The notes under the pieces: model-generated
Database searches by the model: none
Seen by the model: the letters and a program-made list of their open reading frames with translations, nothing else
What the model was told of the DNA's origin: nothing
Origin: Minisyncoccota bacterium
Lineage (GTDB): Bacteria > Patescibacteriota > Minisyncoccia > Phycocordibacterales > UBA9973
DNA length: 57,268 nt
Reading direction: 5' to 3'
Assembly (NCBI GenBank): GCA_041659845.1
Contig: JBAZXM010000004.1
Location: 1-57,268 of the forward strand
Translations under genes and position numbers: made by a program
Shown: positions 10,890-51,779 of the stretch, piece after piece
Position numbering within the stretch: position 1 is the first letter of the stretch
How the letters are laid out: every line of letters starts with the position of its first letter

Positions 10890-10894
10890 AAATT

Positions 10895-16765: not shown

Positions 16766-16796
16766 ATCGGCTGTGCGGTGAAAATACTAGAAATGA

Positions 16797-17261
16797 ATGT
16801 TAAAGAAGTTAATACTTATGAACAATAAAATTAAATTAATTACAATAATAACATCTATATTTTTTCTAAGCATATCTGTCTTCAGTCTTTTTTTTATGAA
16901 GGATATGAATAATATGGATATGGATCAATTTTCCAAAAACGAATGCCCTCTTTTTGTATTGGGAGGTGAAATCTGTCCAACTGGCATCTTAGGTGTTGTT
17001 CACCATATATCTGCATATCAGTCATTTTCTCATGTTCTAATTTCAGCCAAAAATTTTGAATTATTATTAATTATTGTATTGTCTTCTATTCTTGCATTAT
17101 TTTTGTTTAGTCGATTATTATTTTTTAATCAAAAAACGAACCTAAATTACTTAATCAGGTGGCAATTAAAAAAGAAACAATTTTCTCAATTAAAGTCAAT
17201 AAAAATGTCAAGGTGGCTGTCACTATTTGAGAATAGCCCATCTTATTTTAATAATGCATAG
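16797..17261 (+). CDS. hypothetical membrane protein (Met/Cys/His-containing)
   Basis: 154 aa with 2-3 TM segments. MKDMNNMDMDQ, CPLFVLGGEICP and HH motifs. Followed by two hairpin/U-tract elements at 17256-17299 and 17301-17324. Confidence 0.5.
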   Translation: MLKKLILMNNKIKLITIITSIFFLSISVFSLFFMKDMNNMDMDQFSKNECPLFVLGGEICPTGILGVVHHISAYQSFSHVLISAKNFELLLIIVLSSILALFLFSRLLFFNQKTNLNYLIRWQLKKKQFSQLKSIKMSRWLSLFENSPSYFNNA

Positions 17262-17342
17262 ATAAGCTTTTGTCGAAAAAGGTTTTTATCTATGCTTTTC
17301 AAATCCTCTCGTAAGGATTTTTTATTATTTAATTTTTAAAAA

Positions 17343-19100: not shown

Positions 19101-19117
19101 TTAAGCAATATAAATAT

Positions 19118-22100: not shown

Positions 22101-22225
22101 CTGTCGTAATCTTTGGAGGATTAATGTCTTCCACAGCAATATCTTTGTTTTTAACCCCAGCATTATTTTATCGTTTTGGTAAAAAGTCGGCATTAAAAGC
22201 AATGGGGTCCGCTTCTGGATTCTAA
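19118..22225 (+). CDS. heavy-metal-efflux type RND transporter (CusA/CzcA family)
   Basis: 1035 aa with 12-TM RND topology. The N-terminus is colinear with CusA (ILPDINKPTVTIFAESDGMAAPEVERLILNPIE). Confidence 0.88.
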   Translation: MFNKIISWSLKNKIIVLLIAGIVTVVGVWSITTMKVDILPDINKPTVTIFAESDGMAAPEVERLILNPIESAVAGAPGVERIRSNASYAQATVNMEFAWGSDTLRNRQIVQERLSQAILPIGVKPVIGPSTSLLGEIMWIGINSSDSKISPMELRTLADWTIRPALLKTKGVANVLVMGGDVREWQININAEQLRRYGLMLEDIRKSVEDALINKSGGLLTEEEKEYPIRILVAPNEVSELADISIGRSKENNRPIRLSDIASLSESPSIIRGSGAIDGNPGVILRIIRQPDAQTITVTDEINKTFTSLSASLPESVVLHPNLFRQENFIRAGLSNVEGALRDGTILVIIVLIIFLMNIRMTMITLTAIPLSILVTAIVFKSFDLSVNVMTLGGIAVAVGELVDDAIVDVENIFRRLRLWMFDGKKENRENVVLSASKEVRNSIVYATILVAVVFLPIFFMPDIEGKLLIALGSAYLVSLIASMIVSLTVTPVLSALLLDDKALNGHEKETKVVQKIKEKITPWIYWCINHVKIIGSVTIIALLLTVGAYFFAGKEGIPPFNEGSMVVMIFLPPGTALSTTNEYVTRFEKALLEVDGIRQVSNIAGRAPADPHGGSPNSSEVQIALKPGFEGQRDRIMSDIQKVLDRFGNADFSLGQPITHRVEMLLSGVRAPIVVKVFGDDPVKMESAAKQVVSELKKQKGIENPRIQQNTVVPEFRIYVDRNRLAEYGLSAGIVAKDIEMGLMGDKLGQVRLGSASVDVVARYDAESKGTMASLRDLSLPFMGADSLGSVSDIRIEGGMNSQDHEGGKRVLVVSANYQGSDVVGAVDSAKTSLESKKLPVGITLSFEGNYKSQKESSLRLGLIFIFGIFLIFGVLYYAFKSISIVLLIMTNIPTVLIGGMIGIWFTGGSINLAHLVGFISLAGIVSRNGIMLISRSLSLVQKENLPFVPETIVMATLDRVVPVLMTSLVTALALIPLLISGSEPGKEMLHPLAVVIFGGLMSSTAISLFLTPALFYRFGKKSALKAMGSASGF

Positions 22226-25700: not shown

Positions 25701-27260
25701 ATTATTGACACCAGTAGTATTTAAATTAAGAGCACCAGTACCAACAGCAACATTTTTATCTCCTGTGGTATTTGCTTTAAACGCTCTAAAACCAACAGCA
25801 GTGTTACTGCCCCCCGTCATTGTAAGATTTCCAGCATCAAGTCCTGCAAAGAAATTACTACCACCAAGAGTATGAAGAAGAGTTATACCACCCTGATAAA
25901 TAATACCAGAAGTTGCGGTGGTAGAAGGAAGAGCAAAATTTCCTGTGATTTCTAATTGTTGAGATGGAGTAGGAACACCTATACCGAAATTACCATTCGC
26001 AAGAAGCGTGGCTTTGGTCGTAAGTGTTTGCAGTGTAGTTCCTGTTGCTCCCGCATCTGAAGTTTGGAAAATGAGACTTCCCCCCACAGCATTACCTGTC
26101 GCTTTTCCGCCAGCGATAGTGAAGTTACCTCCAGCAGTGTTGAGTCCGAATGCACCTGTTGCATTAAACGTAATTCCATCGGGTTGGATTGCTTCATTTT
26201 GATCATTTATAACACCCTGCCCAAAATATGCATTAATAATTTTACCTAATCCTGCGCCTTCAGAGGCGCCAATTACTAACTGATTCGAAGCAGTCGCACT
26301 TGCTACTGAACCAATCATGATTGAATTAGAAATATCAACAGGAGAAAAAATTCCTGTAGCATATCCAATTCCTATATTATTACTTCCTGTAGTATTAAGA
26401 GTGAGGGCACTGACTCCAAGAGCTGTATTAAAATTACCCGTAGTATTTGCGAGGAGAGATTGATAGCCGTATCCCACATTACCAAATCCGGTAGTATTTG
26501 CGAGGAGAGATTGATAGCCTGTGGCAGAATTAGCATCTCCATCAATATTTGCAAAAAGAGCATTGGAACCAAAAGCGGTATTAAAATCTCCTGAAGTGTT
26601 TGAGTTAAGAGAATATGCTCCCATTGTCGTATTATCAACACCAACATCATTTGACGCGAGACCATTAACACCGACGGCTGTATTATTATTTCCTATTGTA
26701 TTGGCAAATAGTGCGGCGGCGCCAATAGCAGTATTTAATTGACCTGTTGTATTTGAAAGTAATGTATCAGTACCGATCGCTGTATTTCCTAGTCCTGAAG
26801 TAGTGCCGTTCATAGCTCCTTTACCTACGCTTAGATTAGCATTTACTGTATCTTGTTTTGCAAAAAATGCGCCGTTTAGATTGAGAGCTTTATTTGTATT
26901 ATCCCAAGTGAAATTCGTATTGTCTTGCGCGAGATTATTTGATGAGTCTACAAAAAGAATTGAACCTGAAGTTCCGGAAGTCACGGCATTGCCGATACCC
27001 ATACCGACAACGCTCCCCCAACTCGTCGTCGTGCCGTCAGTCGTCAAAAACTTTCCATTATTCCCGGTCTGAGTCGGCAAAATCTGCACAGTACACCCAG
27101 CTGACCCAGGGGTACAGTTCGGATCAAGTGTTTGACCGGGGGTGAAAGCAGCGAACAATGAAGTAGTAGCAGAGAATACTGCTAAAAAGGCAAGAGAAAA
27201 AGCTAGTTTTAAATTACTCTGAAAGAAATTTCTTATTTGACTGAAAAAGTGTTTCATCAT
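22755..27260 (-). CDS. giant secreted tail-fibre-like protein: Hep_Hag-like NTAxG repeats, duplicated ~300-aa module, 7 Asp-box propeller repeats, S74-type intramolecular chaperone domain, Pro-rich tail
   Basis: 1501 aa with a signal peptide. Repeats of NTAxGxxALxxNTTG. Seven repeats of WTSRTSAxxNxWxSVTYGNGLFVAV...VMTSPDGIT. SSQRWKHDITDLD...LGLIAEEV...INYQDITPILIKSVQE resembles the auto-cleaving C-terminal chaperone of phage tail fibres and endosialidases. Confidence 0.8.
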   Translation of the reverse strand: MMKHFFSQIRNFFQSNLKLAFSLAFLAVFSATTSLFAAFTPGQTLDPNCTPGSAGCTVQILPTQTGNNGKFLTTDGTTTSWGSVVGMGIGNAVTSGTSGSILFVDSSNNLAQDNTNFTWDNTNKALNLNGAFFAKQDTVNANLSVGKGAMNGTTSGLGNTAIGTDTLLSNTTGQLNTAIGAAALFANTIGNNNTAVGVNGLASNDVGVDNTTMGAYSLNSNTSGDFNTAFGSNALFANIDGDANSATGYQSLLANTTGFGNVGYGYQSLLANTTGNFNTALGVSALTLNTTGSNNIGIGYATGIFSPVDISNSIMIGSVASATASNQLVIGASEGAGLGKIINAYFGQGVINDQNEAIQPDGITFNATGAFGLNTAGGNFTIAGGKATGNAVGGSLIFQTSDAGATGTTLQTLTTKATLLANGNFGIGVPTPSQQLEITGNFALPSTTATSGIIYQGGITLLHTLGGSNFFAGLDAGNLTMTGGSNTAVGFRAFKANTTGDKNVAVGTGALNLNTTGVNNTANGYFALGSNTSGGQNIAVGYQALTANTTGLNNTAVGYQALTANTTLNGNTAMGYQSLLANTGGDNTAVGMGAMLNNTTGNFNTAIGFLAGSIATTFDSSISVGYGSVPTASNQLVMGGDSGGGTGKITQAYFGQGVTNDNNSGVQPTGITFNTTGAVGTDTAGGNFTFAGGKATGNALGGNLIFQTSVAGGTGTTLQSLTTKMFIDSLGLVNISNGPAWDTGGFGNEATGKHLNLGYDVAGSIGYIRSVDILNSFTDLRLAGSSISLWTAPGGVVSERLTILSGGNVGIGTNIPASFLDIDSSIIATNNNQVGGLTVRTSITGRATTSDTVLGIKFSPTLVAGANTQSLTTLLVSPTYNDNSKTGVTHYDAIFNGGGNVGIGTTTPGEKLVVVGNIISKGTAWTSRTGSVNNQWLGVTYGNGLFVAVAINGTGDGVMTSPDGINWTSRTSAADNSWTSVTYGNGLFVAVASSGTGNRVMTSPNGITWTSRTGAPDDSWNSVTYGNGLFVAVSGNGNVMTSPDGITWTSRTSAASNNWRSVTYGNGLFVAVSNTCTGDCVMTSPDGITWTSRVNSADNDWRSVTYGNGLFVAVSVDGTGNRVMTSPDGITWTSRTSAVNNQWLGVTYGNGLFVAVSNTGTGDRVMTSSDGITWTSRTSAVNNPWMGVTYGNGVFVAVAQSGASDVMTSGKTDYIPFSANNLYQGGLTITGDTTLFNLTTDNAGGSDHYLCITTAGQIVTRGTTCGGSSQRWKHDITDLDAGLNELLQFHPVSFRYNDTNDLRLGLIAEEVNTIDPRLVFYDEDGTTPRGINYQDITPILIKSVQEIDLRLKGLETLDDGTGNSKLKTLITQFLADAGEKIINGIVRVKDIIAETITANTVKTNGVEFKDTATGQIYCVVITNGDFAKTAGECGTISPITIPSSNPDPTPTTDSIPLSDSTPPSDTPPVDEAPPAAPDPSPIPDAEPASEPAPDPGSITSY
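23640..24500 (-). repeat. tandem coding repeats, period ~126 bp (7 units)
   Basis: gcactagtgcgagaagtccaagtgataccatcgg(g/a)tgaagtcat(g/a)ac recurs at 23722, 23848 and 24100, with diverged copies between. Confidence 0.85.
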
Positions 27261-29639: not shown

Positions 29640-31802
29640 ATGCAGCCGAATGATTTGATTGAAAAACTTTTTCGCTTGATAGACAGTCAAAAAAAAGCGC
29701 TGAAAAAGCTGGGGGTCGTGACTATTCATGATCTCCTTTTTCACTTCCCATCGCGTTATGGCGATACGGCGGAATTTACAACGATTAATAATATTTCCAA
29801 AGGCGAAACGGCTGTCATTTTCGGCAGGATACGCGGATTAAAAACCGGCAAAGCATTCGTGAAAAAAACCCCAATGTCCGAAGCACATATAGATGACGAC
29901 ACAGGTAGTATCAAAGCAATCTGGCTCCATCAGCCCTACATTGCCAAGATGATCCATGACGGCGCACTTGTGCGAGTGGAGGGTAAAATTTCTGAACGCA
30001 AAAACGAGCTTTCGCTTGTAAATCCAAAAATCGAAGTCATCGGCAAATTACCTATCGGAGTCGGTGATTCTCTTTTCGGCGACGGAAGCGCAGGTCACAC
30101 TCTCTACCCTGTATACCCCGAGAGCCGGGGTATCACTTCTAATTGGCTATATCATGCAATGCAGAAAATTTTCAAAAGCGGAATTTTAGAAACACTTATC
30201 GACCCGATACCGAAAAATATTCTTGAAAAATATAATTTACCAACTCTTAAAACTGCTCTCATCTGGATCCACTCTCCGCATAAAGAATCCGACGCACTCT
30301 CTGCTCGCAAGCGCTTCGCATTTGAAGAAGTTTTTTTTATCCAGCTCCACAAACGCCATGACCGAATGCTCTTTGAGCAGAATAAGGCATACACTGTCGC
30401 TGTAGAGCAAAAAGATACAGATGAGTTTATGGTGCGCTTCCCATTCCATGCGACTGATGCGCAAAAAAAAGCGATTGACCAGATCCTTGAAGATTTCAAA
30501 AAAGAAAATCCAATGTCGCGCCTTCTCGAGGGAGATGTCGGATCTGGTAAGACGGCAGTCGCTGCAACTGCAGCGTATAGCGTGATTCGTAGTCGGCCGA
30601 CAAATCAAAGTTTCGGAAATCTGCAGGTTGCCTACATGGCACCGACGGAAATTCTCGCCACTCAACATTTCGAATCATTCATCCAATACTTTAAACATTT
30701 AAATATCAATATCGGACTTCTAACAGGCAGTGGCTGCAGGAAATTCCCCTCAAAAGTCGCATCAAATGCAAATGGATGGACACCGATTTCCCGCGCTCAA
30801 CTTTTAAAATGGGTATCGAATGGAGAAATCCCGATACTCATCGGTACGCATGCGCTCATTCAGAAAAGTGTAAAGTTCAAACACCTTGCGCTCGTGGTTA
30901 TTGATGAACAGCATCGCTTCGGCACAGAACAACGTAAAAAATTAGCAAACAAAGAAGGCTTTGCTCCGCATTTATTATCAATGACTGCAACACCTATCCC
31001 CCGCACGCTTGCACTCACAATCTATGGCGACCTTGATTTGACCTTACTTGATCAAATGCCCGCAGGCAGAAAAACTGTCGTGACTGAAATCGTCACTCCA
31101 GAAAAAAGAAACGATACTTATGAAAAAATAAAGCTGGAGATGTCGAGTGGTCGACAACTGTATGTAATCTGCGCGCGTATCGATGATGCTGATCCGGACA
31201 TGGAAATAAAACTGAATCTACGCTCAGTCACAAGTGAAGCCGAACGCTTGAAAAAAGAAGTTTTCCAAGATTGTGAAATCGGCATTCTGCACAGTAAGAT
31301 GACGAAAGATAAAAAAGAAGAAGTCATGAAAGATTTTTCCGATGGGAAAATCGATATTCTAGTCGCAACATCGGTAGTGGAAGTCGGAGTGAACGTACCC
31401 AATGCAACAATAATAATAATTGAAGGCGCAGAGCGCTTCGGCCTCGCCCAACTCCACCAGCTCCGCGGGCGCGTAATTAGAAGCTCGGACCAAGCATACT
31501 GCTATGTCTTTGCCGAGACTAAAACACAAAAGACTATTGATCGCCTGCGTGCATTAGTCACCGCGAAAAATGGCTTTGAATTATCTGAACTTGATTTACA
31601 ATTGCGTGGTGGAGGCGAGCTCGCTGGAAGAAAACAGTGGGGCCTCTCCGATCTCGGCATGGAAGCGATAAAGAATTTAAAAATGGTAGAAGCTGCTCGC
31701 ACTGAAGCGACAAATATAATTTCTTCGGATCCAGAGCTTACTAAGCATCCACTCCTTAAACAGACTCTGTCGCATAAAAAATTCGATATTCATTTTGAGT
31801 AA
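29640..31802 (+). CDS. recG: ATP-dependent DNA helicase RecG
   Basis: 720 aa. Wedge/OB N-terminus, GDVGSGKT, DEQHRFG, SMTATPIPRT, QLHQLRGRVIR. Confidence 0.9.
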   Translation: MQPNDLIEKLFRLIDSQKKALKKLGVVTIHDLLFHFPSRYGDTAEFTTINNISKGETAVIFGRIRGLKTGKAFVKKTPMSEAHIDDDTGSIKAIWLHQPYIAKMIHDGALVRVEGKISERKNELSLVNPKIEVIGKLPIGVGDSLFGDGSAGHTLYPVYPESRGITSNWLYHAMQKIFKSGILETLIDPIPKNILEKYNLPTLKTALIWIHSPHKESDALSARKRFAFEEVFFIQLHKRHDRMLFEQNKAYTVAVEQKDTDEFMVRFPFHATDAQKKAIDQILEDFKKENPMSRLLEGDVGSGKTAVAATAAYSVIRSRPTNQSFGNLQVAYMAPTEILATQHFESFIQYFKHLNINIGLLTGSGCRKFPSKVASNANGWTPISRAQLLKWVSNGEIPILIGTHALIQKSVKFKHLALVVIDEQHRFGTEQRKKLANKEGFAPHLLSMTATPIPRTLALTIYGDLDLTLLDQMPAGRKTVVTEIVTPEKRNDTYEKIKLEMSSGRQLYVICARIDDADPDMEIKLNLRSVTSEAERLKKEVFQDCEIGILHSKMTKDKKEEVMKDFSDGKIDILVATSVVEVGVNVPNATIIIIEGAERFGLAQLHQLRGRVIRSSDQAYCYVFAETKTQKTIDRLRALVTAKNGFELSELDLQLRGGGELAGRKQWGLSDLGMEAIKNLKMVEAARTEATNIISSDPELTKHPLLKQTLSHKKFDIHFE

Positions 31803-32191: not shown

Positions 32192-33718
32192 TTATTGAAT
32201 AATCAGCTTGCCTAAACCAATAGATTTACCTTTTTCGGACACTATTCTGTAAAGATAAGCGCCGGAAGATAATCCTTCGCGGTCGATTTCGATATTTTCA
32301 ACACTACTCACCTTTTTTACTTCCCTACCCATAAGGTCATAGAGTTTTAAAGTGCGCATAATGTTGTCAGAAAATTTAATTTCTGCGTGGTTAGACATCG
32401 GATTGGGAGATAATGTAAACAATCCTTTTCCTGATTGATTTTCAAAAATCCCAGTAATCTCTTTACAATTTACATATACTGGATCACTAACGGCTTCACA
32501 TTCGTATTGGTTTTTTACCTTTACAAAATAAAAACCTGCGGTATCGGTAGTATAGAACTGAGAAGTTGCTCCAGCAATCACAGAATCGCGAAAACACCAT
32601 TGGTATTTCTTTGCAAAACTCGACGCTAAGTCACAATTATTCTGTGCAATTTTTGGTTGAGTTGGTAAATCATGGAATATAATATTCGCATTTGTGTTAC
32701 CACTACAGCCATACTGTGTTCGAACATAGACCCCATAGACTCCGGAATTTGTAATAATTCTAGTTGACATAGTGTCACTAATAGTAATGTCGTTCCACTG
32801 GAATGATTCGTATTGATCTGTCTTTTCAAGAGTCAGAGATATAGAATCACCACTGCAATAAAATTGCTTAATGGGAGACATGGTAATAACAGGATTGGGT
32901 AATGAGTGCACAAGCAAATAAATAGAATCTGAATTTGCCTTGCAACCATTTGCGTCCGTTATGTTTACTTTTACTATTCCAGAATTTTTACTTTGATAAT
33001 TCCACGCATCTGTGGAAGAATCAGGCCATAAAGCAATCAGAGGACTAGCCCACCATCCTTTGTATGATGTGTAGACTGAACTCCAATTATTATTACATCC
33101 ATCAATCGTATCAATTACAAGACCTTTTCTTATTTGACTGTATGCAGAAAGCGAAACAGAAAAATTGGATTTGTAATTTAAATATGCATACGCCTGACTA
33201 ATACAACCAACAGTATCACGAATCACAACCCTGTAACTTCCTTGAGTTGTGGCAACGAGACTATCAGCGATACCTCTATCTATGGTGTCGTTCTGAAACC
33301 ATGCATAAGTACTGCCTGACATAGCACTCACTTTAAATGTAATTTTCTCCCCCGGACAAACATTTGGAGGATTATTGGATGTAATCGAAACAGTTGGACT
33401 AGGATATACGGTAATAACCATACTCATCATTTTCACCTGACTGGTGGCAGAATCAGTAATATTTAAATACACTGTATATATACCAGGGTTACTAAAAGTA
33501 ACAACTGGCGGTGTTTTTGTATTCCAATTCCACGGAGATCCTCCGTTAAACGACCACTGCCAATTTGAAATTGAACCAGTTGAATTGTCGGTGAACTGAA
33601 TAGAAGAATTCTGACAAACAGAAGTCTTATCTGATGTGAAATTTACATCAGCTTCTTTGGCTTTTGAAGTCAAAGTCATGGCACAAATAAATGCGCTAAC
33701 AAACAATAATTTTTTCAT
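32192..33718 (-). CDS. secreted PKD-domain protein with a T9SS (Por) type-A C-terminal sorting domain
   Basis: Signal peptide MKKLLFVSAFICAMTLTSKA (ATG 33718; the track start 33742 is TTG). PKD motif VNFTSD...IQFTDNSTG...WQWSFNGG...GIYTVYLNITD. C-terminus LSPNPMSNHAEIKF...LKLYDLMGREV...LSSGAYLYRI...GKLIIQ. Confidence 0.8.
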   Translation of the reverse strand: MKKLLFVSAFICAMTLTSKAKEADVNFTSDKTSVCQNSSIQFTDNSTGSISNWQWSFNGGSPWNWNTKTPPVVTFSNPGIYTVYLNITDSATSQVKMMSMVITVYPSPTVSITSNNPPNVCPGEKITFKVSAMSGSTYAWFQNDTIDRGIADSLVATTQGSYRVVIRDTVGCISQAYAYLNYKSNFSVSLSAYSQIRKGLVIDTIDGCNNNWSSVYTSYKGWWASPLIALWPDSSTDAWNYQSKNSGIVKVNITDANGCKANSDSIYLLVHSLPNPVITMSPIKQFYCSGDSISLTLEKTDQYESFQWNDITISDTMSTRIITNSGVYGVYVRTQYGCSGNTNANIIFHDLPTQPKIAQNNCDLASSFAKKYQWCFRDSVIAGATSQFYTTDTAGFYFVKVKNQYECEAVSDPVYVNCKEITGIFENQSGKGLFTLSPNPMSNHAEIKFSDNIMRTLKLYDLMGREVKKVSSVENIEIDREGLSSGAYLYRIVSEKGKSIGLGKLIIQ

Positions 33719-33829
33719 TTCTTTTAAGTTTTTAAAGGTCAATTTTTGCTGTAAAAATATCCTTACAGCTAGATTTGTCTTTATTTAAGACTTTTTAATC
33801 ATAGCACCTTTTATATAAAAAGTCAATAG

Positions 33830-34984: not shown

Positions 34985-35011
34985 TGTGATATAAGTATAT
35001 CACGCTTATTG

Positions 35012-35085
35012 TCCATCCTCCTGGACTCGAACCAGGGACCCTCGAGGTATAAGCTCGATGCTCTAACCAACTGAGCTAAGGATGG
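35012..35085 (-). tRNA. tRNA-Ile (anticodon UAU)
   Basis: Hand-folded reverse complement. ccatcct/aggatgg acceptor (C1:G72), TA-GCTC-agttggtta-GAGC, tcgag-ctTATac-ctcga, cctgg-ttcgagt-ccagg, A73. Confidence 0.8.
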
Positions 35086-35177: not shown

Positions 35178-37070
35178 TTAAATTACTTCTTTCTTTTTCG
35201 GTATTATTCCATGAGCGATAATAATCTGTTCATATTCTGGTTGTTCAAGAGTTTCCATTTCAATCAATTTTTGTGCAATCGCATCTAATGCCGGCCTGTT
35301 ATCTTTAAGAGTCTGGCGCGCGACTGCAAATGCATTCTGCATTATTTTTGAAACTTCTGCATCAATTTTTGCCGACATGCTTTCAGAATAATTCTTATCA
35401 TCAACTCCTCTACCAAACATAGTGCGTCCACCGTCGGATTCAAGTGCAATAGGCCCAATATCATCTGACATCCCCCATCTAGTCACCATCGCGCGTGCGA
35501 GAGCACTTGCGACTTGTAAATCATTAGACGGGCCGGTAGTTATATCACCGAAAATCATTTCTTCCGCCACATATCCGCCAAGCGACATCGCAATATCATC
35601 TAAGAATTCTTTTTTTGATTGGAGCTTGCGTTCTTCAAGCGGAAGCTTGAGTGTATAACCACCTGCACGACCACGAGCAACGATAGAGACTTTGTGCACT
35701 GGATCTGCGTAAGGCAAAACTGACGCCACAAGTGCATGCCCAGCTTCATGGTATGCCGTAATTTCTTTTTCTTTCTTGGTCATCAAATGACTCTTTCTTT
35801 CTGGACCCATCATCACCTTTTCAATTGAGCGAATGAGGTCATATTGTGCGACTGTTTTACGGTCTTCGCGTGCAGCTAAGATCGCCCCTTCGTTCATAAG
35901 CGAATAGAGGTCAGCACCCGAGAATCCTGGGGTACGCTCAGCAATTAATTCCAAATTTATATCCTCAGCAAAAGGCTTTTTTACCGAGTGAACTTGCAGG
36001 ATTTCCAACCGATCCTTGCGGTCAGGCAAGTCGAGTACCACTCGGCGATCAAATCTGCCTGGGCGGAGTAGTGCAGGATCAAGCACATCAGAGCGATTAG
36101 TTGCGGCCATAACAATAACCTTTTCGTTCGGTTCGAAGCCGTCCATTTCCACGAGAATCTGGTTTAACGTCTGTTCACGTTCGTCATTTCCCCCGCCTAC
36201 GCCAGTGCCACGTACACGGCCAACAGCATCAATTTCATCAACGAAAATAATAGATGGTGCGGATTTTTTCGCCATTTGAAAAAGGTCACGCACGCGCGAT
36301 GCACCGACACCGACAAACATCTCGACAAATTCTGACCCAGAGAGATGAAAGAATGGCACCCCCGCTTCGCCCGCGACTGCGCGCGCAAGTAAAGTCTTGC
36401 CTGTGCCCGGTGCACCTGTTAAAAGCACGCCTTTCGGAATTCGAGCTCCGATGTCTAAAAACTTTTTTGGGTTTTTCAAGAAGTCCACAATTTCTTTCAA
36501 TTCTTCTTTCGCTTCTTTGCAGCCGGCGACATCTTTGAAAGTCACACGGTTATTATGATCATCAGGCGATGTGATGCGCGCTTTGGATTGTCCAAAAGTA
36601 AATGCTTGCATTCCCGCGCCTTTGACTTGGCGTGTGAGCATCCAAAAGAAGAAAATAATCACAAGCACAGGCAGAGCGAATGGTAAAATATTTAAAAGCC
36701 AAAAACCAATACCACCCTCACTCTTAATATCGATAGTCGTACTCGCAAGCTCCTCAGGCTTAACCCCATAATTTACCAGCGTCTGCGAGAGTGAAGCTTC
36801 AGACTCTTTTTTTGATTTCTTTACCGTGCCATCCTTATAATCAATAGAGAGGTCTTCACCATCAACTTGGATATTTTTCACGAGGCCTGCTTGTATATTC
36901 TGAGTAAGTTCAGACAGTGAAATAACCGGAATATCTTTGTGATTGTTCGCAATGATAGAGTAAAGCACCACAATCAACATGAAAATAAGCACCATAGTCG
37001 TCGCGTGGCGCATAACCGGAAGCTTGCCTTTCGGCATATTCTTTTTTGACTGTTTTTTCCCCCCTGCCAT
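35178..37070 (-). CDS. ftsH: ATP-dependent zinc metalloprotease FtsH
   Basis: [26 protein letters not shown] region, HEAGHA zinc motif. ATG 37070 is preferred over TTG 37088. Confidence 0.92.
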
Positions 37071-37161
37071 AGTACGGTCAGTATACAATAAAATTAAGAA
37101 ATATGGAATAAAAATAAAATAAAAAAAGCGTGTGATGAATTACAGTATAAAACTGCAACCA

Positions 37162-39951
37162 TCACACGCTTTGTAGTATGGAATCATAAACAGGAATCTG
37201 TTTATGATATTTCTTCCAATACCCGTTGGCATCTTTATAATCCACACCCGGATTTTTTTTCAAAAACCCTGCAGTAAAATCATAAATCTCGCCCTTAAAG
37301 CCTCTTTCTCGAAGAGACTCGGTCAAAGTAATTGTATTCCTCTGCCCGGTCAATCCAACTTGGCGACCATCAGGACTTACCTTTTCTTTATCATAGTCAA
37401 AAGCGATTATGATATTCCCAGAAAACCCAGCAAGCAATTCGAAGAGAATTTTATTATTCACTCCGATGATTGCCGTCGCTGCTTTGATATCACTCTTTTG
37501 AAGGAAAGTATCAGCATCAATTGGCGCTTCTGTGACCAGAATATCAGTATTTCCCTCACTCATCGCTTTCGCCATATTAAAGGCGCCGTGCGGAATGTTG
37601 TGTATACCTTTCAAAAGTTTACGATGAAGCAAACCTTTAGGACACCGTGGGTCAACTGACCGCCCATAGAAACTGTCTATGATTCCTCCGAGTTCAAGCG
37701 GGTACGTTAATCGATTTTCAAGAATAGAATAAGGCAAACCCATCTCTTCGACAATCTTCCCATTAACTCTTTTGGGGATCGGCCGCATAAGATCACTTAG
37801 TGAATAGCCGTGTTGCTTTAACAAAGTGACAAGACCACTTCTTTCTGAGATCTTCGAGGAAATTCCTAGTAAACCATGATTGAGAAGCTCCTCATAACTA
37901 AACTTGCGCTCAAGCAATCCATGAATGAATCGCTCGTCTGCAAACCCTGCACCAATACTAAATGACATATCCGGATCAAGACCTCGTTCATTTCTAAGAT
38001 ACCGCTCCCCTTTACTTCCCTTGAATGCTTGCTGGAGAAGTTCTTGAGTATGGAGCATAATCTCTTGATGCCTAGTCGGAATAATCAACTTTTCTATTTC
38101 ATTACTCTGTACTCGCGCCGGTTTAATCAGAAGACGCACGTCATCTGGAATGGACGACTGCACAAACCTGCCAGCCACGCCGCAGCTAAAGCATTTAAAC
38201 ATACCCTTACTGAATGAAACTGATAGTGATGGAGAATCTTCATTATTATGCACAAAGCAACTTACAAATCCTCCACGCGCTCCATTAAATTCTCTTGATG
38301 CCTGTACTCTGCCATCTTTAATCGCTCCGAAAAGACGATCGAGATGCATTTCGCAAACCTCCTTACCATTATCCAAATCAACAATTTCAATAATCTTATG
38401 CTCATCCTTAAACTTCTCAGTTTGAAACTGGCTAATGATTGTAGCGAAGGTGCTCTTCGGAACTGATATGGTTTCAACTGAAGTAAGAATTTCTTCAAGC
38501 TTAGTTTGCAGACCATGATCGGATTTCTGAAGGGTGATAGGAGTGTCGGTATTCGTCATCAATTTAATGGCGTGATTCGCAAGTGCGTTGCCTGTATGCC
38601 TGATGAATGACCTCCTGCGAGCGCTTTTGAAGTTCGCAACGATTTGCTTTTCAAATGCGAGCTTGATTTCCTCCGGAGTTAAAACCACATCGTGAATAAT
38701 AAACTTCTCGGGTAATAGATACACAAGCTGGCCTTTAATGCTGAATGATTTCGTCTCCCAAATTTTCTCAATGTCTTCGATAGGAGCCTTTGACGCAAGA
38801 GCATGGGATAGCACCGCCATAGAAATGTATCTTCTGGCTTGAGCATCATGCTCTTTAAGCGGACGATCTCTTAATTCTTCAACATCCATGATATTCTGCT
38901 TGCCTTTGCGCCGCATCCCTTTCGGACCGTCGCCGACTGCAAACTTCCAATCACGAATCAGAAAACTAAGATGACCACCGAAGGTTCCTAACAGTTCATC
39001 CATAATGTGTCCGACTGAAGCAAATCTCTCTGTTGTCATTTTTCTAATGATGCGAGACTGTTCTTCTGTTGGAGCTTTTCCGTTAATGCCACTTAATTCA
39101 AGCACATCTAGCCTGCCTGCTCCGAGATCATATTCATACGGCAACATCGGCACCTCACGAAAGAAGTTTAAGTTTCCCGATAATTTATGAACAAGTTTAT
39201 AACAATCCAGAGCTGATGCCCAAGTCATGAGCGTTAAGAACGCCAAGCGTTCATCTTCAAGTACGCTGTGATTTATCACTTTCAGTAAGTGATCACCAAA
39301 AATCTTTTTCAGATTATTGCGAAATTTAAAAAATAACGGAGTATGTAATGGTAATATTTCTCCATGCATACCATCTTTTAACTCACACCATTGGTCAGTG
39401 ATCATCTCTATAAGCGCCTTCGCACGAGAACCTGTGTAACGCTTTTTATTCTCCGGAAATGTTTTTATTCCGGAAAATAAATCTTGCTCGTCATTTGCCT
39501 TAGGGAAAAGATTAAATTGCTTTGAGAAAGCATTTTTCTCTTTTTTCACCCGTCGAGGCGAATCAAGATTGATGAGATTGCCAAAGAAAAGTTCAGGTAT
39601 AGCCACATGCCCGATGACACCATAGTATCTGGTGCGATCATGGTGTGAAGACGCTGTTCCCTCTCCGGTAATAAGCTCATTAAGAGCGCGGAATAATTTG
39701 TTACTGTTGGATGTTCTTGAGATGTCTCCCCAGCTTACCTTGTGATCTTTTTCATAAATACTGAAACAAGTAGCAAGATATTCAAGCGCTTCGACTTTCG
39801 TATTCGCGCGAGCTGATTTTATGATTCCCTCTATGAGCAAATCCAGTTGATCCTGCTCAAATGCATGCCATACCCAAATCCTAAAATCCGGGGATGGTAT
39901 ACCTTTGATACCACTTGCGACTTCGTCCGCAGTAATAGGTGTGTACGACAT
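37162..39951 (-). CDS. fusion protein: unknown N-domain + RecB-like PD-(D/E)xK nuclease + DnaG-type primase core (CHC2 zinc finger, RNA-polymerase subdomain, TOPRIM)
   Basis: 929 aa. D282 (RLDVLEL), D334-x-K336 (IRDWKF) and Q371-x3-Y375 form the RecB-family motifs. C565-x2-H568-x18-C587-x2-C590. RYLRNERGLDPDMSFSIGAGFA and NRLTYPLELGGIIDSFYGR are DnaG-like. TOPRIM residues are E808 (ILVTEAP) and D852-x-D854 (AFDYDKE). No DnaB-binding C-terminus. Confidence 0.7.
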   Translation of the reverse strand: MSYTPITADEVASGIKGIPSPDFRIWVWHAFEQDQLDLLIEGIIKSARANTKVEALEYLATCFSIYEKDHKVSWGDISRTSNSNKLFRALNELITGEGTASSHHDRTRYYGVIGHVAIPELFFGNLINLDSPRRVKKEKNAFSKQFNLFPKANDEQDLFSGIKTFPENKKRYTGSRAKALIEMITDQWCELKDGMHGEILPLHTPLFFKFRNNLKKIFGDHLLKVINHSVLEDERLAFLTLMTWASALDCYKLVHKLSGNLNFFREVPMLPYEYDLGAGRLDVLELSGINGKAPTEEQSRIIRKMTTERFASVGHIMDELLGTFGGHLSFLIRDWKFAVGDGPKGMRRKGKQNIMDVEELRDRPLKEHDAQARRYISMAVLSHALASKAPIEDIEKIWETKSFSIKGQLVYLLPEKFIIHDVVLTPEEIKLAFEKQIVANFKSARRRSFIRHTGNALANHAIKLMTNTDTPITLQKSDHGLQTKLEEILTSVETISVPKSTFATIISQFQTEKFKDEHKIIEIVDLDNGKEVCEMHLDRLFGAIKDGRVQASREFNGARGGFVSCFVHNNEDSPSLSVSFSKGMFKCFSCGVAGRFVQSSIPDDVRLLIKPARVQSNEIEKLIIPTRHQEIMLHTQELLQQAFKGSKGERYLRNERGLDPDMSFSIGAGFADERFIHGLLERKFSYEELLNHGLLGISSKISERSGLVTLLKQHGYSLSDLMRPIPKRVNGKIVEEMGLPYSILENRLTYPLELGGIIDSFYGRSVDPRCPKGLLHRKLLKGIHNIPHGAFNMAKAMSEGNTDILVTEAPIDADTFLQKSDIKAATAIIGVNNKILFELLAGFSGNIIIAFDYDKEKVSPDGRQVGLTGQRNTITLTESLRERGFKGEIYDFTAGFLKKNPGVDYKDANGYWKKYHKQIPVYDSILQSV

Positions 39952-39953: not shown

Positions 39954-40035
39954 TGCCTCCTTTTTTTAGAATTGGTTTAATTTTTTAAATATCAGATTTG
40001 AACAAATACTACAGTAATTTAGGGGGATGTCAAAT
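39954..40035 (-). promoter_or_regulatory. promoter/5'UTR cassette copy A (TTGACA-N16-TAGTAT, ~50-nt leader, AAAGGAGG RBS)
   Basis: -35 at 40028-40033 and -10 at 40006-40011, read on the minus strand. About 94% identical to 40656-40736. Confidence 0.7.
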
Positions 40036-40091: not shown

Positions 40092-40652
40092 CTATAACTT
40101 CATATGATTTCTTTTTATGGGCGTTTCGTCGAGATGTTTGAGAAAGTGTGGAAGAAGTTCTAAAACTTTACCAGTTTCAGTATCTAAATCTATTTCAAAA
40201 TACTTTACAAAGTCTTCATGATTATCTTTGTGAGATTTTTTAGAATCCATTGAAATTAGATTGAGATCCCATATAGTGGAAAGAATTATTGCTTCGCAAA
40301 CTTCGTGCTTAAAGCCGGCAAGAGTAATACTTGCATTTGCTGAAATTTTCACAGAAGCGACACTTTTTACCCTCTCTGTAGTTTTTTCGTAGAGAAACTT
40401 TTTCAATAATTTTCGTTTCCCATAATTTCTCAATAAATTTTCTGCATCTTCTGCATAGCCTGCATACAACTCAAGATAAGCCATTCTGTCTGAGTACTGA
40501 GAACCGATGGTTATTTTAGCGAGGCTATGGCCATATTGGTCACTGATAGATAAGTGCGCAACTGGATCCTTTGGAACAAAAGATAGTTTTCTTAAATACT
40601 CAATTTTTGAGATTATTGAACTTACTGTTGCAATTATTTCTTTTATATTCAT
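40092..40652 (-). CDS. hypothetical protein (orphan, 186 aa)
   Basis: ORF with a strong RBS, its own promoter copy and its own terminator. No recognisable motif. Confidence 0.6.
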   Translation of the reverse strand: MNIKEIIATVSSIISKIEYLRKLSFVPKDPVAHLSISDQYGHSLAKITIGSQYSDRMAYLELYAGYAEDAENLLRNYGKRKLLKKFLYEKTTERVKSVASVKISANASITLAGFKHEVCEAIILSTIWDLNLISMDSKKSHKDNHEDFVKYFEIDLDTETGKVLELLPHFLKHLDETPIKRNHMKL

Positions 40653-40655: not shown

Positions 40656-40736
40656 TGCCTCCTTTTTTAGAATTGGTTTAATTTTTTAAATATCAGATTT
40701 GAACAAATAATATAGTAATTTTGGGGAATGTCAAAT
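40656..40736 (-). promoter_or_regulatory. promoter/5'UTR cassette copy B (TTGACA-N16-TATTAT, leader, AAAGGAGG RBS)
   Basis: -35 at 40729-40734 and -10 at 40707-40712, read on the minus strand. Near-identical to copy A. Confidence 0.7.
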
Positions 40737-40773
40737 AAAAAACACCATTCGAAAATGGTATTTTTTATTTTTG

Positions 40774-41162
40774 TGGAGATGTCGAGAATCGAACTCGAAT
40801 GCAAAAGATATTTTAAAGAGGGTCTACATACTTAGATTATTTTTTGTTTTAGGTGGTTCGCGTGAGAAATAAACAAAACCGCGAAACACCGATTCTCTGC
40901 AATCTCAAAATCAAAGCGAGAAAGACTTTGACTTCCAGTCCGAAAATATAATACCTCATTCCTTTTTTCGGACAGAAAAAGAAGAGATACCAGATTGGCT
41001 TAAATTAAGCGAATGCTGGAGCAAAATCAAACTTACCGAAGTAAGGAGATTTTACCTTTGCGACTTTGTTTGCATTTAGTCTTTTGTACATTTTTTACAA
41101 GATCTGTACGAACTTGATATGCGCTCTTTAAAGGGTATAAATTGTCTAGGCCGATCATCCCC
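40774..41162 (-). ncRNA. ssrA: tmRNA (SsrA)
   Basis: 5' GGGGATGATCGG pairs with 3' CATCTCCA, including the G3:U pair. T arm tcgag-ttcgatt-ctcga. Internal tag ORF GCA AAC AAA ... TTC GCT TAA. Adjacent to smpB. Followed by a terminator at 40737-40768. Confidence 0.88.
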
Positions 41163-41163: not shown

Positions 41164-41607
41164 TTAATTTTTCAAGGTTCTTTGCAATTCACGCTCGGTA
41201 TCGCGCTTCTTTATCGTCTCGCGCTTATCAAACTGCTTCTTCCCGCGTGCGACTGCAATGCTTACTTTAACCTTACGCCCTTTATTATACATTGCAAGTG
41301 GCACAATTGTCAACCCTTTCTTTGAATCAATATCTGCGAGTAGAATTATCTCCTTTTTCATCAAAAGAAGCTTGCGTGTACGATCCGGGTCATACTCTTT
41401 AGGCGTATTAGCAGGCTGATACGGCGGTATATGCATACCTACTATATATGCCTCCCCTCCGCGCACTATTATATGAGCGCCTTCAAGCGAGCCCTGGCCG
41501 CCTTTAATAGCCTTGACTTCAAAGCCAAGCAACTCAATCCCGGCTTCGTATTTTTCCAGGAACTCGTAGTTGAAGTGCGCTTTTTTATTAGTGATAAAAT
41601 TAGACAT
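41164..41607 (-). CDS. smpB: SsrA-binding protein SmpB
   Basis: 147 aa. NKKAHFNYEFLEKYEAGIELLGFEVKAIK and KLLLMKKEI motifs. Confidence 0.92.
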   Translation of the reverse strand: MSNFITNKKAHFNYEFLEKYEAGIELLGFEVKAIKGGQGSLEGAHIIVRGGEAYIVGMHIPPYQPANTPKEYDPDRTRKLLLMKKEIILLADIDSKKGLTIVPLAMYNKGRKVKVSIAVARGKKQFDKRETIKKRDTERELQRTLKN

Positions 41608-49049: not shown

Positions 49050-51779
49050 CTATTTTTGTTCATATTTTCCAAATATCTCCGCTTCGACTTCTTCGCGGTC
49101 ACGGCCGTATTTAAGATAGGAAAGCTCTTTTAATTTGTCGATGATTTCTCTATTACCTTCTGGATTTTTAGCAGTCACCATATTGAATGGTTTTGATGCT
49201 GGTGCTCCATTGATAATCATGCTGACATAAGCATTATAATTTTCGAGTTTAATAATATCTGACGAAGTAAATGTTGGAGAAAATTTCGGCTCCAAAACTT
49301 TCGCATCTTCCGGTGAGACACGGAAAACCGCCATTGACCCCACATTACCAAAAACAGCATTTTTGATTTCATCAGTAAGTTGAGCGATGTATTGGTGAGC
49401 AACATTGAGAGACAAGCGATACTTGCGCGCTTCGGAAAGGATTGAGGCTATTGAAGGTGTTGTGACATTTTGAAATTCATCGATATACAGATAAAAGTCA
49501 TTCATCTTCTGCCCGAACATATCCACGCGAGATAGCGCTGCCATCTGGATTTTACCGACAAGAATGAGGCCGATCAAATTGGCATTGATATCGCCAAGTC
49601 TGCCTTTTGAAAGATTCACGAGTAATATCTTTTTCTCATCCATAATCTTTCTGAAATTAAGTGAGGAATGTTGCTGAGCAATAACCGGACGCATGATGTC
49701 GTTGGAAATAAGCGGATCAAACTTACTCGAAATATACGGCACAAAATTTGCAAGCCCTTGATCGCCGGTTGTCTTTTCAGCAGTTTCCCAGAATTGCCTG
49801 ATAATAGGATTTCTACAATGCGAAAGTTTCATGTCGCGGAATTCTTTGTCGGCCAAGACACGCGTTACCTCAAGCAAAGTTGAGCCTGACTCCGGATGTT
49901 CCATCACTAGGAACGCAGAGTTTTTGAAATACTGCTCGAACATCGCCCCGCCGGAAATTTTCAAATCAAAGAGCTGGTTGAAAATATTCATCATTTCATT
50001 CACCACAAAAGTCTTTTGCTCCGGATAATTTGGATCATATTCAAGCATATTGAGCCCCATTGGCCGCGCAGTGTAAGCCGGATCGAAATAAATCACATCA
50101 TCAATGCGCTCCGGCGGAATGTATGAAAGAATGTCTTGAATATCCGATCCGTGGGGATCGATGAAACAACAGCCATCACCATTTGCAATATCTTGAGCGA
50201 TTAAGTTTTTCAAAATTGAAGTTTTACCCGTACCTGTCTGTCCAACGACATATAAGTGGCGTACACGGTCTTCGCGTGCCATTCGGATCTCTGTGCGAAC
50301 TCCACGGAAATCATTGTAGCCAAGTAATATCCCATCCTTACCCATTTCAAGCGGAGCTGGACCTTCCCCAGCGCGTGCAGTCTTTAATTGCGGAGTACTG
50401 CCTACGCCCAATGGAAAATGGAAAACAGTTGCCAATTCTTTCAAATTAAGAGGTATTTCTTTACCTTCATCAATTGTTCGATAGGAAAAATTATGAGTGA
50501 ATTCCTTTATCTTTTTGTCTTCAATTTTTTTGAAAATGAATTTATTACTGCCGGCTTCAGCAAATTGGTTGAAGGCAGATTCAAGCTCCACCACAATCTC
50601 TTCGGCTCGTGATTTCGTCTCAGCTCCAGCAAGTACCCGGATGTGAGACGACATAATCGTGGACTTCATCTTTTCAGTGATATGCGCGACTGCAATCTCA
50701 TCAATCTTTTTTTCTTCTTCTTTTTTCTTATCATGGGTGCCAAAAATAAGGTGCTTCACCGCGCCGGCAAATTGTCTGTCGAATTCACCGAATAATTCAG
50801 AAGCTTTCTTAAAATCCATACCTTCTTTCACTTTTTGCAGTATGCTTGTGAATTTCTTTATGAATTTGTCGCCTGTAGGAGTGATTATAATCTGAATTGC
50901 CGCACCTTCACCTTTGGTTTTCATCTTGGAAAATACCGAAAGCATAGTTTGGATGGGATCGTGATCAATAGATTCGTATGTCTTTATCGGAAGTACTTCA
51001 CTCTCAGCAAGCTCTGCGTATGCACCTGACGCCACTCCCCCATCAGAGAAAATATTGTAATCATCCGTAACTTCGCGAATTTTCGCCCCACCGTAAAGCC
51101 CGAGTACTTGCTTCTCGAAGAGCGTAGCGGAAATAGAAGGCACAGAAGCATAGAAAACCACGTGGTCACTATCACCGGAAAGCGCGATCTCAAGCGTATA
51201 ATAATTTTTGGCGTAATTTTCCGGATCACTGCCTACTGATTGCATGCCTGCATAGAACTGCTCCATCATGGAAATAAATTCTTTGATTGGACGCTTATCA
51301 TCTTCCAGTTTTTCAGGCAGTGTAATTTCAAAAAGCTTCATATGGAGCGCTTTAAAAAGCGGAGTACCTTCTTTAAGAGATGGGACTGTTGCAGATTGGA
51401 TATATTGAATAAGAAAGCGATGAAAGTCATCATCCAAATGAGGATTGCCTATTTTCATGACTATTTCAAGAGCATTTTTAATCCCATTCGTTAAAAGGAT
51501 ACCTAAGAGTTCTTCCATCTTCGTATCGTGACTTTCTGGGCGCAGACGCAAAACAATATTCGCCGATTCTTCTTCGGGAATTATCTGTGTTTTAGGCAAC
51601 ACCTGCTCCTTGGGCAATATCGCATATTCCTTAACAACTTCATGTGCTGCGACCTCGGGCTTATTATGCCCACTTTCAATCAGAGCTTTTTCTCTCTCGG
51701 CAATATGGGCGCGCAGAAATTGCAATTCCTCTTCAGGAGATTTGAATTTGGGAATTTCCTTTGTAAAAAGGTTTTCCAT
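49050..51779 (-). CDS. large soluble FtsK/HerA/VirD4-like P-loop ATPase (T4SS coupling-protein-like C-terminal half)
   Basis: 909 aa. Walker A VVGQTGTGKTS, Walker B LYIDEFQN, and RKYRLSLNVAHQYIAQL. No N-terminal TM helices. Confidence 0.7.
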   Translation of the reverse strand: MENLFTKEIPKFKSPEEELQFLRAHIAEREKALIESGHNKPEVAAHEVVKEYAILPKEQVLPKTQIIPEEESANIVLRLRPESHDTKMEELLGILLTNGIKNALEIVMKIGNPHLDDDFHRFLIQYIQSATVPSLKEGTPLFKALHMKLFEITLPEKLEDDKRPIKEFISMMEQFYAGMQSVGSDPENYAKNYYTLEIALSGDSDHVVFYASVPSISATLFEKQVLGLYGGAKIREVTDDYNIFSDGGVASGAYAELAESEVLPIKTYESIDHDPIQTMLSVFSKMKTKGEGAAIQIIITPTGDKFIKKFTSILQKVKEGMDFKKASELFGEFDRQFAGAVKHLIFGTHDKKKEEEKKIDEIAVAHITEKMKSTIMSSHIRVLAGAETKSRAEEIVVELESAFNQFAEAGSNKFIFKKIEDKKIKEFTHNFSYRTIDEGKEIPLNLKELATVFHFPLGVGSTPQLKTARAGEGPAPLEMGKDGILLGYNDFRGVRTEIRMAREDRVRHLYVVGQTGTGKTSILKNLIAQDIANGDGCCFIDPHGSDIQDILSYIPPERIDDVIYFDPAYTARPMGLNMLEYDPNYPEQKTFVVNEMMNIFNQLFDLKISGGAMFEQYFKNSAFLVMEHPESGSTLLEVTRVLADKEFRDMKLSHCRNPIIRQFWETAEKTTGDQGLANFVPYISSKFDPLISNDIMRPVIAQQHSSLNFRKIMDEKKILLVNLSKGRLGDINANLIGLILVGKIQMAALSRVDMFGQKMNDFYLYIDEFQNVTTPSIASILSEARKYRLSLNVAHQYIAQLTDEIKNAVFGNVGSMAVFRVSPEDAKVLEPKFSPTFTSSDIIKLENYNAYVSMIINGAPASKPFNMVTAKNPEGNREIIDKLKELSYLKYGRDREEVEAEIFGKYEQK

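Follow-up and report, generated by a model that had tools for sequence, protein, structure and literature searches.

Primases of the DnaG type are thought to work through the replicative helicase. Bacteria of the candidate phyla radiation (CPR) cannot yet be grown alone, and the maintenance of their genomes is poorly understood. Among the nucleases, the RecB-like NucS/EndoMS uses a short clamp-binding peptide to act in concert with the sliding clamp (PMC6159521), and QLxLF is the accepted consensus of the β-clamp-binding motif (PMC4549789). Here we analyze a stretch of 57,268 nucleotides (contig JBAZXM010000004.1 of the Minisyncoccota assembly GCA_041659845.1), referred to throughout as the window, and in it a gene for a 929-amino-acid protein that combines a predicted RecB/Cas4-type nuclease module, a loop with a clamp-binding-type motif and a DnaG-type primase core. 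Each of these parts is of a known kind. Their joint architecture, on the other hand, appears to be undescribed in the libraries and literature that were searched, and the same appears to hold for the nuclease, a family that is invisible to sequence profiles, and for the fact that CPR bacteria have a second, conserved DnaG paralogue.

Results

The primase half

The C-terminal half of the protein (residues ~556-929) contains the landmarks of a DnaG catalytic core listed in a preliminary description of the gene, which was made from the sequence alone: C565-x2-H568-x18-C587-x2-C590, G667-A-G669-F-A, F761-Y-G-R764, E808 and D852-x-D854. A YLxxRGL motif reported there is present with a different spacing, since Y651-L...R656-G-L reads YL-x3-RGL. 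The sequence ends 75 residues past the DxD motif and has no DnaB_bind match, in agreement with the earlier observation that the DnaB-binding domain is missing.

The catalytic residues were counted in 101 divergent full-length representatives of the family, one per 50%-identity cluster. The three zinc-binding cysteines, C565, C587 and C590, are found in 101/101 and H568 in 90/101. Conservation is as high in the RNA-polymerase domain: Y651 and R656 are each present in 99/101, Y762 in 99/101, R764 in 100/101, and H776 and K778 each in 98/101. In the TOPRIM subdomain, E808 is kept in 100/101, D854 in 98/101 and D907 in 99/101, while D852 is present in 85/101 and replaced by N in another 14. Since all DnaG motifs are conserved, including the primase-specific ones outside the TOPRIM subdomain, this half is predicted to be a functional primase rather than a TOPRIM nuclease. 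A β-hairpin in the linker that precedes the zinc-binding domain is also conserved (D516, I521-E522, G529, M535-H536).

Single-sequence scores are weak. The best matches of the 929-amino-acid protein were to Zn_ribbon_DnaG (E 1e-5), to Toprim_2 (E 0.012, below its cut-off) and to the Aquifex DnaG structure 2au3 (E 3e-4). Its score against TIGR01391, the profile of replicative DnaG, was 37.4 bits, below the cut-off of 283.6, and family members range from 37 to 49 bits. The phage DNA primase profile phrog_47 scored higher, with 55.7 bits (E 6.4e-15) over residues 564-915. The DnaG homology of this half is nonetheless secure. A profile built from 15 C-terminal halves of the family matched 2au3 with an E value of 6e-19, as well as eight other DnaG structures. 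In the AlphaFold model the primase half has a predicted local distance difference test (pLDDT) score of 75-94, and Foldseek matched the model to the RNA-polymerase domains of DnaG (5guj, 1dd9, 4e2k) with E values of 4e-9 to 1e-5 and a target-normalised TM score of ~0.57, and to the T7 gp4 primase with E ~1e-3.

The predicted N-terminal nuclease module

The N-terminal half of the 929-amino-acid protein has no sequence match in Pfam, NCBIfam, PADLOC, PHROG or the PDB, which bears out the impression that no described family has this architecture. A Pfam scan of 26 divergent members at E<=1 gave no match, the profile of the family's N-terminal halves found nothing relevant among PDB sequences, and hhalign against one PDDEXK_1 protein, taken from the family locus L014, found no significant similarity.

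The nuclease assignment comes from residue conservation and from the predicted fold. The residues first read as a RecB/Cas4-like signature, D282, D334-x-K336 and Q371-x3-Y375, are present and 96-100% conserved in the 101 divergent relatives: D282 is invariant, position 334 is D in 80/101 and E in 19/101, and K336 (100/101), Q371 (97/101) and Y375 (100/101) hardly vary. E266 is found in 99/101 and D76, near the N-terminus, in 97/101. An alignment of the N-terminal half of the 929-amino-acid protein with those of 25 members consisting of the nuclease module alone, which share 19-28% identity, leaves D76, G111, H115, E266, D282, K336, G340, D341, P364, Q371 and Y375 invariant, and these columns behave alike in the full-length fusions.

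The AlphaFold model calculated from the nuclease-module alignment has a predicted template modelling score (pTM) of 0.79 and a core pLDDT >90. In this model β1 carries E266, D282 opens β2, D334-x-K336 closes β3 and Q371xxxY375 sits on the next helix, in the order β1(E266)-β2(D282)-[helical insert]-β3(D334xK336)-α(Q371xxxY375)-β4-β5. The predicted topology and the motif order are those of the RecB/AddB/Cas4/λ-exonuclease-type PD-(D/E)xK nucleases, with an αβββαβ restriction-endonuclease-like core as the presumed fold. Foldseek matches of the N-terminal half were almost exclusively to nucleases of the RecB/Cas4/MGME1/RecE type, with borderline E values. The top PDB matches were MGME1, Cas4 SSO0001, the AdnAB nuclease, ACE1, type I-C Cas4 and RecE, with E values of 0.14-1.6 and probabilities of at most 0.75, and the top of the BFVD list consisted mostly of PD-(D/E)XK, Cas4, RecB-family, RecE and YqaJ proteins of phages, with E values from 1.2e-3 to 0.1 and probabilities reaching 1.0.

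The preliminary description had found the first ~270 residues unrecognizable. They do lack a database match, but part of them belongs to the nuclease module, which includes long helices before β1 and an invariant G111-x3-H115 motif. It probably corresponds to the motif that nucleases of the RecB/Cas4 type carry on their N-terminal helix; hhalign places it on the GTLLH helix of the PDDEXK_1 protein, within a match that is insignificant. Conserved cysteines are absent from the N-terminal half in alignments of the family, so that the four needed for a Cas4-type Fe-S cluster are missing and the module is not Cas4 proper. With moderate to high confidence, we assign this half to the RecB/Cas4-type PD-(D/E)xK nucleases, and from its residues the module is apparently catalytically intact. 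The proposed fusion of such a module to a DnaG-type core without a helicase-binding domain is supported, with the motifs of both parts conserved.

The loop with a clamp-binding-type motif

Inside the nuclease module lies a disordered loop in which a Q-L-x-L-F peptide recurs across alignments of the family, often twice; the loop consensus is Q-L-S-L-F-(E/D). With the loop bounded by profile alignment, motifs were counted in 145 members and compared with shuffled sequences. QLxLF was present in 32/145 (shuffle mean 0.4, maximum 4), QxxLF in 68/145 (mean 3.6, maximum 10) and Qxx[LIMF][FLW] in 94/145 (mean 26, maximum 41). QLxLF is about 50-fold denser in the loop (0.29 per 100 amino acids) than in the remainder of these proteins (0.006). 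Members that consist of the nuclease module alone retain the motif, and a strict QLxLF or QxxLF occurs in 0/27 canonical DnaGs. Judged by its sequence, the loop motif is a probable docking site for the β sliding clamp (DnaN).

Size, forms and distribution of the family

A profile of residues 1-545 was compared with 1.84 billion representative proteins. It recovered 206 at E<=1e-3, which are representatives of 50%-identity clusters and all belong to one family. Among 150 representatives there are 99 fusions and 26 nuclease modules alone, the latter falling mostly, though not strictly, in one clade of a neighbour-joining tree. One complete stand-alone nuclease-module open reading frame (ORF), of 508 amino acids, lies on L014 at 220-1746. 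Convergent with and abutting this ORF is a gene for a 257-amino-acid PDDEXK_1-family nuclease (1748-2521; Pfam E 9e-5). The 929-amino-acid protein itself has full-length homologues at 39-49% identity (n=6). A word-indexed search for primase-only relatives with the profile of the C-terminal half gave canonical DnaGs only and failed to recover the family itself.

Contigs from a collection with one genome per species yielded 13 loci, all in CPR metagenome-assembled genomes (MAGs), and metagenomes yielded 18 further loci. The MAGs carry the labels Nomurabacteria, Yanofskybacteria, Paceibacterota, Minisyncoccia and, loosely applied, 'Saccharibacteria'. The family has so far been seen in Paceibacteria-type CPR genomes only. 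One homologue is annotated as 'hypothetical protein' by NCBI and as 'Zinc finger CHC2-type domain-containing protein' by UniProt. Literature searches on CPR/Parcubacteria primases and nuclease-primase fusions found no description of the architecture.

A canonical dnaG beside a family member

The DNA of all fetched family loci was searched with canonical DnaGs by tblastn. On locus L031, which is the same DNA as the MAG contig L010 (99.99% identity), a family member of 921 amino acids with all catalytic residues kept (9968-12733) is found 3.7 kb from a canonical DnaG of 569 amino acids (16406-18115). The latter scores 358.6 bits against TIGR01391 and matches Zn_ribbon_DnaG, DNAG_N and Toprim; its match to DnaB_bind is weak (E 7.6e-4, 20.1 bits, just below the 20.6-bit cut-off). 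It is followed directly by rpoD. The stretch L031 9968-19330 (= L010 1864-11200), 9.4 kb on one Minisyncoccia contig, starts with the family member and also holds a 175-amino-acid ORF of unknown nature, obg, an ABC transporter pair and the dnaG-rpoD pair. Because this canonical pair shares the contig with it, the family member is a second primase and not the housekeeping one, and the gene is not, as might have been the case, the only dnaG of the lineage. A hidden Markov model (HMM) of the family's C-terminal half gives the co-resident DnaG 88 bits, compared with 63-104 bits for DnaGs of unrelated bacteria. The co-resident DnaG being scored no better than unrelated ones, the paralogy is old. 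In this one genome lineage the family is a second, anciently diverged primase paralogue alongside canonical DnaG.

These observations bear directly on the alternative in which the fusion is the replicative primase, that is, a DnaG that gained the nuclease and clamp module, lost its DnaB-binding domain and replaced the canonical enzyme in some Paceibacteria. Such a role would agree with the conservation of all primase motifs, with the single, chromosomal gene in housekeeping contexts and with the lack of a canonical dnaG in the 57-kb window, and clamp tethering could in principle stand in for helicase tethering. However, 57 kb is too short to call dnaG absent from the genome of the window, and one family member shares its contig with a bona fide dnaG-rpoD pair. 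TIGR01391 scores of 37-49 bits, the existence of nuclease-only forms and a number of representatives (~206) that we judge to be small for a phylum-wide essential gene also speak against it. We regard this alternative as rather improbable.

Genomic neighbourhoods

The neighbourhoods of family members consist of housekeeping genes (leuS, tsaD, bipA, glmS, ftsZ, obg and metK). Partial, loose synteny is common even to distant members, and no neighbour is conserved across the whole family. Because the partial synteny spans deep divergence, vertical inheritance is indicated. In four to five lineages, represented by L006/L035, L009, L007 and L014 (a nuclease-only locus), a gene for PriA (TIGR00595, 147-312 bits) is found at a distance of 5-8 kb, and recG occurs near the 929-amino-acid gene and near the family gene of L019 (Table 1). 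Counted together, at least six lineages have one of these two replication-restart helicase genes at 0.5-8 kb from a family member, a loose hint at the process involved. By a rough estimate, not a calculation, the proximity of priA, recG or dnaG exceeds the one or two cases that chance would give for ~19 lineages.

Two guesses at a function had been made from the single locus, a nuclease/primase conflict (defence) protein and an enzyme that served a now decayed mobile element in replication initiation or nicking. Both remain unsupported because no defence or mobile-element signatures were found. A single-gene anti-phage or conflict protein would use the zinc finger and TOPRIM subdomain to sense or act on foreign DNA, with the PD-(D/E)xK nuclease as the effector. 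Combinations of a nuclease with a TOPRIM domain are common in defence systems, e.g., OLD and Gabija, the same pairing as is seen here, and the primase half scores higher with phrog_47 (55.7 bits) than with TIGR01391 (37 bits). The sole PADLOC match, to 'RTasDnaG-like' of DRT systems, is weak and covers the zinc finger only (E 4.5e-5). Defence-island neighbours were found in none of ~19 distinct loci, where leuS, tsaD, bipA, ftsZ, obg, priA and recG stand instead, and the loose synteny over deep divergence points to vertical inheritance. In addition, the primase-specific motifs outside the TOPRIM subdomain are conserved, and a clamp-type motif is typical of factors that replicate or repair DNA. 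A defence function is unlikely.

The tmRNA gene (ssrA) is a classical integration hotspot, and DnaG-type primases without a helicase domain are typical of phages and plasmids. The 929-amino-acid gene lies downstream of the tmRNA gene, encodes a primase of that helicase-less kind and is in a part of the window (39-41 kb) with a lower GC content (0.36), all of which would fit an enzyme left by a mobile element that had integrated beside ssrA and then decayed. Clamp-binding motifs, moreover, are also used by transposases (PMC4549789). An island integrated at ssrA was considered and rejected: there is no integrase in the window, the 3′ end of the tmRNA gene is not repeated, and the sole notable repeat is a promoter duplication of 74 nt. 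The ssrA, ftsH and 186-amino-acid neighbours of the window are not conserved in any of 15 related loci. A scan of IMG/VR with one close-subfamily pattern gave nothing, and tblastn against INPHARED phages and PLSDB plasmids gave no match to the N-terminal module and only weak generic DnaG matches. Together with the housekeeping surroundings of the homologues, these results make the mobile-element origin extremely unlikely.

An alternative of another kind is the processing of imported DNA during competence, in which the nuclease would trim the incoming strand and the primase would start the complementary strand, like plasmid Sog/TraC in recipients. Such a role would be favoured by the presumed reliance of CPR bacteria on the uptake of DNA and by the type IV pilus/competence-type machinery of the window (T2SSE/PilB ATPase, 5507-7240). 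The idea is purely speculative, no com/pil linkage was seen in the related loci examined, and we hold it to be very unlikely.

The gene and its surroundings

The 929-amino-acid ORF starts with ATG and is complete. Its own promoter-like site, ribosome-binding site (RBS) and hairpin with a T run at the stop codon make it a stand-alone transcription unit, as had been thought. The hairpin was missed by the automatic terminator scan because its loop exceeds 8 nt. The location 'next to ssrA' has to be amended, for an orphan ORF of 186 amino acids intervenes. The 74-nt direct repeat, with two copies only in the window (39962-40035 and 40663-40736, minus strand, 95% identical), comprises a shared promoter TTGACA-16-TA(G/T)TAT, 5′ untranslated region (5′UTR) and RBS. 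Its second copy sits before the 186-amino-acid ORF, and the two copies flank that gene together with its terminator. The repeat could be due to a cassette insertion with promoter duplication, or it could serve the co-regulation of both genes.

The 186-amino-acid ORF was considered as a partner of the fusion and rejected; it matches nothing in Pfam, NCBIfam, PADLOC or PHROG and is dissimilar to the 929-amino-acid protein. Co-occurrence of the two genes, which the preliminary description had proposed to look for, was not seen, with no homologue of the ORF in the 15 related loci (tblastn).

Table 1. Positions of the features of the 929-amino-acid gene, its surroundings and the priA and recG genes near family members
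Locus	Feature	Position	Strand	Remark
Window	Complete ORF, ATG start, 929 aa: nuclease module, clamp-motif loop, DnaG-type primase core	37162..39951	-	
Window	Promoter TTGACA-16-TAGTAT, 5′UTR and AGGAGG RBS of the 929-aa gene	39962..40035	-	
Window	N-terminal helical region, residues 1-100, near-invariant D76	39652..39951	-	AlphaFold2 four-helix unit, pLDDT 72-94
Window	RecB/Cas4/MGME1-like PD-(D/E)xK nuclease module (predicted), residues ~103-466	38554..39645	-	
Window	G111-x3-H115 helix motif	39607..39621	-	Invariant, 101/101
Window	Disordered loop inside the nuclease module, residues 130-172	39436-39564	-	pLDDT <50 in both models
Window	Q145-F-N-L-F149, β-clamp-binding-like pentapeptide	39505..39519	-	
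Window	D282 (motif II, GRLD)	39106..39108	-	Invariant, 101/101
Window	D334-W-K336 (motif III, (D/E)xK)	38944..38952	-	Followed by invariant G340-D341
Window	Q371-ARR-Y375 (QxxxY motif of RecB-family nucleases)	38827..38841	-	
Window	Linker: end of long helix, low-confidence stretch, conserved β-hairpin before the zinc domain	38287..38553	-	
Window	CHC2 zinc-binding domain (C565, H568, C587, C590)	38152..38286	-	Pfam PF01807, E 1e-5
Window	DnaG RNA-polymerase domain, N-terminal subdomain (YLxxxRGL, GAGFA, TYPL, FYGR, HRK)	37552..38085	-	
Window	TOPRIM subdomain (E808, D852-x-D854, D907)	37165..37551	-	Extends to the C-terminus
Window	Terminator-like hairpin at the stop codon, which it overlaps (GCGTGTGATG ... 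CATCACACGC), then T run	37121..37169	-	Read from the sequence
Window	smpB	41164-41607	-	
Window	tmRNA gene (ssrA)	40773-41162	-	
Window	Orphan 186-aa ORF	40092-40652	-	Between ssrA and the 929-aa gene
Window	ftsH	35178-37088	-	Downstream of the 929-aa gene
Window	tRNA-Ile(UAU)	35011-35085	-	
Window	recG	29640-31802		5.4 kb from the 929-aa gene
L019	recG	505-2784		0.5 kb from the family gene
L006	priA	11687-13825		
L035	priA	7743-9596		
L009	priA	14163-16031		
L007	priA	871-2778		
L014	priA	9297-11189		Nuclease-only locus

Some other features of the DNA that was examined deserve mention. The tRNA-Ile of the window has the anticodon UAU (tat), which would allow AUA to be decoded directly and make the usual CAU tRNA with its lysidine unnecessary. 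Two tandem tRNA-Ser genes of 88 nt, located 5 nt apart on the plus strand (10802-10889 and 10895-10982), have the anticodons GCU and, unusually, ACU. A protein of 1501 amino acids (22755-27260, minus strand) contains EPTP and DUF6242 repeats and a Peptidase_S74 (endosialidase-chaperone) domain, a composition reminiscent of phage tail fibres or surface adhesins. Another, of 909 amino acids (49050-51779, minus strand), has a weak match to the DNA-binding domain of TrwB/type IV coupling proteins (E 2.7e-6). 'Por_Secre_tail' C-terminal sorting domains of the type IX secretion system (T9SS), accompanied by PKD or dockerin domains, are encoded in the window at 32192-33742 (minus strand) and on L031 at 20352-21683; they are unexpected in apparent CPR genomes, which belong to bacteria thought to be without an outer membrane. 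On the plus strand (17343-22225) the gene for an HlyD-like membrane-fusion protein adjoins that for a full-length AcrB-type RND pump (E 1e-221), which is unusual for a CPR-type genome.

Discussion

The family is conserved over deep divergence in housekeeping surroundings, its catalytic residues are kept in both halves, and a motif of the clamp-binding type is concentrated in one loop. In the interpretation that we favour, and to which we give even odds, it is a genuine, long-resident chromosomal gene, and its product is a 'cut-and-prime' enzyme that is recruited by the clamp and takes part in replication restart or in repair coupled to replication. The enzyme would be recruited through the loop motif by β clamps left on DNA instead of by the replicative helicase. 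At a DNA end, flap or stalled fork, the nuclease would trim or cleave a strand, and the tethered, helicase-independent DnaG-type primase could then equip the single strand thus exposed with an RNA primer. Cutting and priming together would constitute one step in replication restart or replication-coupled repair.

Several points weigh against this interpretation. While the domain identities, the conservation of residues, the enrichment of the motif, the presence beside a canonical dnaG and the lack of a mobile-element or defence context are results of the analysis, the enzymatic activities, the clamp binding and the pathway are deduced from them. The nuclease escapes the sequence profiles (Pfam, PDB, and hhalign with one PDDEXK_1 protein), and the structural matches of the N-terminal half are borderline, the best E value being 1.2e-3 in BFVD and none being below 0.1 in the PDB. 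Because transposases use clamp-binding motifs too, the motif is no proof of a role in host repair; moreover, the QFNLF of the 929-amino-acid protein is a variant, and a match of the QxxLF type occurs in only about half of the members. The proximity to priA, recG or dnaG is loose (kilobases, with no operons), was picked post hoc and is in part inherited synteny. Finally, co-residence with a canonical dnaG is documented in one genome lineage only.

A broader version of the same idea is that Paceibacteria own an unrecognised device for restart or gap repair, in which a nuclease and then a primase, tethered to the β clamp and independent of the helicase, act on the same end or fork. This proposal is tentative and the balance is against it. 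Were it correct, the device might offset end-processing or primosome components that are missing in these minimal genomes, and its primase would be the first of the DnaG family to be recruited not by DnaB but by the sliding clamp. A second DnaG paralogue, fused to a nuclease, equipped with a clamp motif and devoid of a helicase-binding domain would represent a new way to deploy a bacterial primase, with a conceptual parallel in the repriming and fill-in systems of eukaryotes. The family also adds a candidate PD-(D/E)xK nuclease family of ~200 clusters, invisible to profiles and also existing on its own, and it offers a testable entry to DNA replication and repair in CPR bacteria.

Comparison with known systems

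NucS/EndoMS, the clamp-dependent mismatch endonuclease of Archaea and Actinobacteria, is a precedent for a RecB-like nuclease assisted by the clamp, and the comparison is one of 'works like' only. Homology is not detectable (no Pfam match), the motif of the family is internal while that of NucS is C-terminal, and NucS has no primase. For the family there is no evidence of mismatch specificity.

With the RecB/AddB/Cas4/MGME1/RecE nucleases of the PDDEXK_1 clan, the N-terminal module shares the motifs hhhE, GxhD, (D/E)xK and QxxxY, which the model places on β1, β2, β3 and the next helix. Unlike them, it has no profile-level sequence match and no conserved cysteines, and it contains a helical insert of ~50 residues between β2 and β3, a helical and disordered insert of ~130 residues with the clamp motif and an extra N-terminal helical unit.

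The primase half resembles the primases of phages and plasmids (T7 gp4 fragment 1nui, phrog_47, Toprim_2) in having zinc-binding and RNA-polymerase domains without a separate helicase-binding domain. It differs in being fused to a nuclease rather than a helicase and in being chromosomal, with no member found in IMG/VR by one close-subfamily pattern or in INPHARED or PLSDB by tblastn. In comparison with replicative DnaG (TIGR01391; 2au3, 1dd9, 5guj), the family has a nuclease module of 560 residues at the N-terminus in place of none, no DnaB-binding domain at the C-terminus and a clamp-type motif that is absent from 27 canonical DnaGs. What it shares with DnaG is a CHC2 domain followed by an RNA-polymerase domain, made up of the N-terminal and TOPRIM subdomains, in which motifs 1-6 are conserved.

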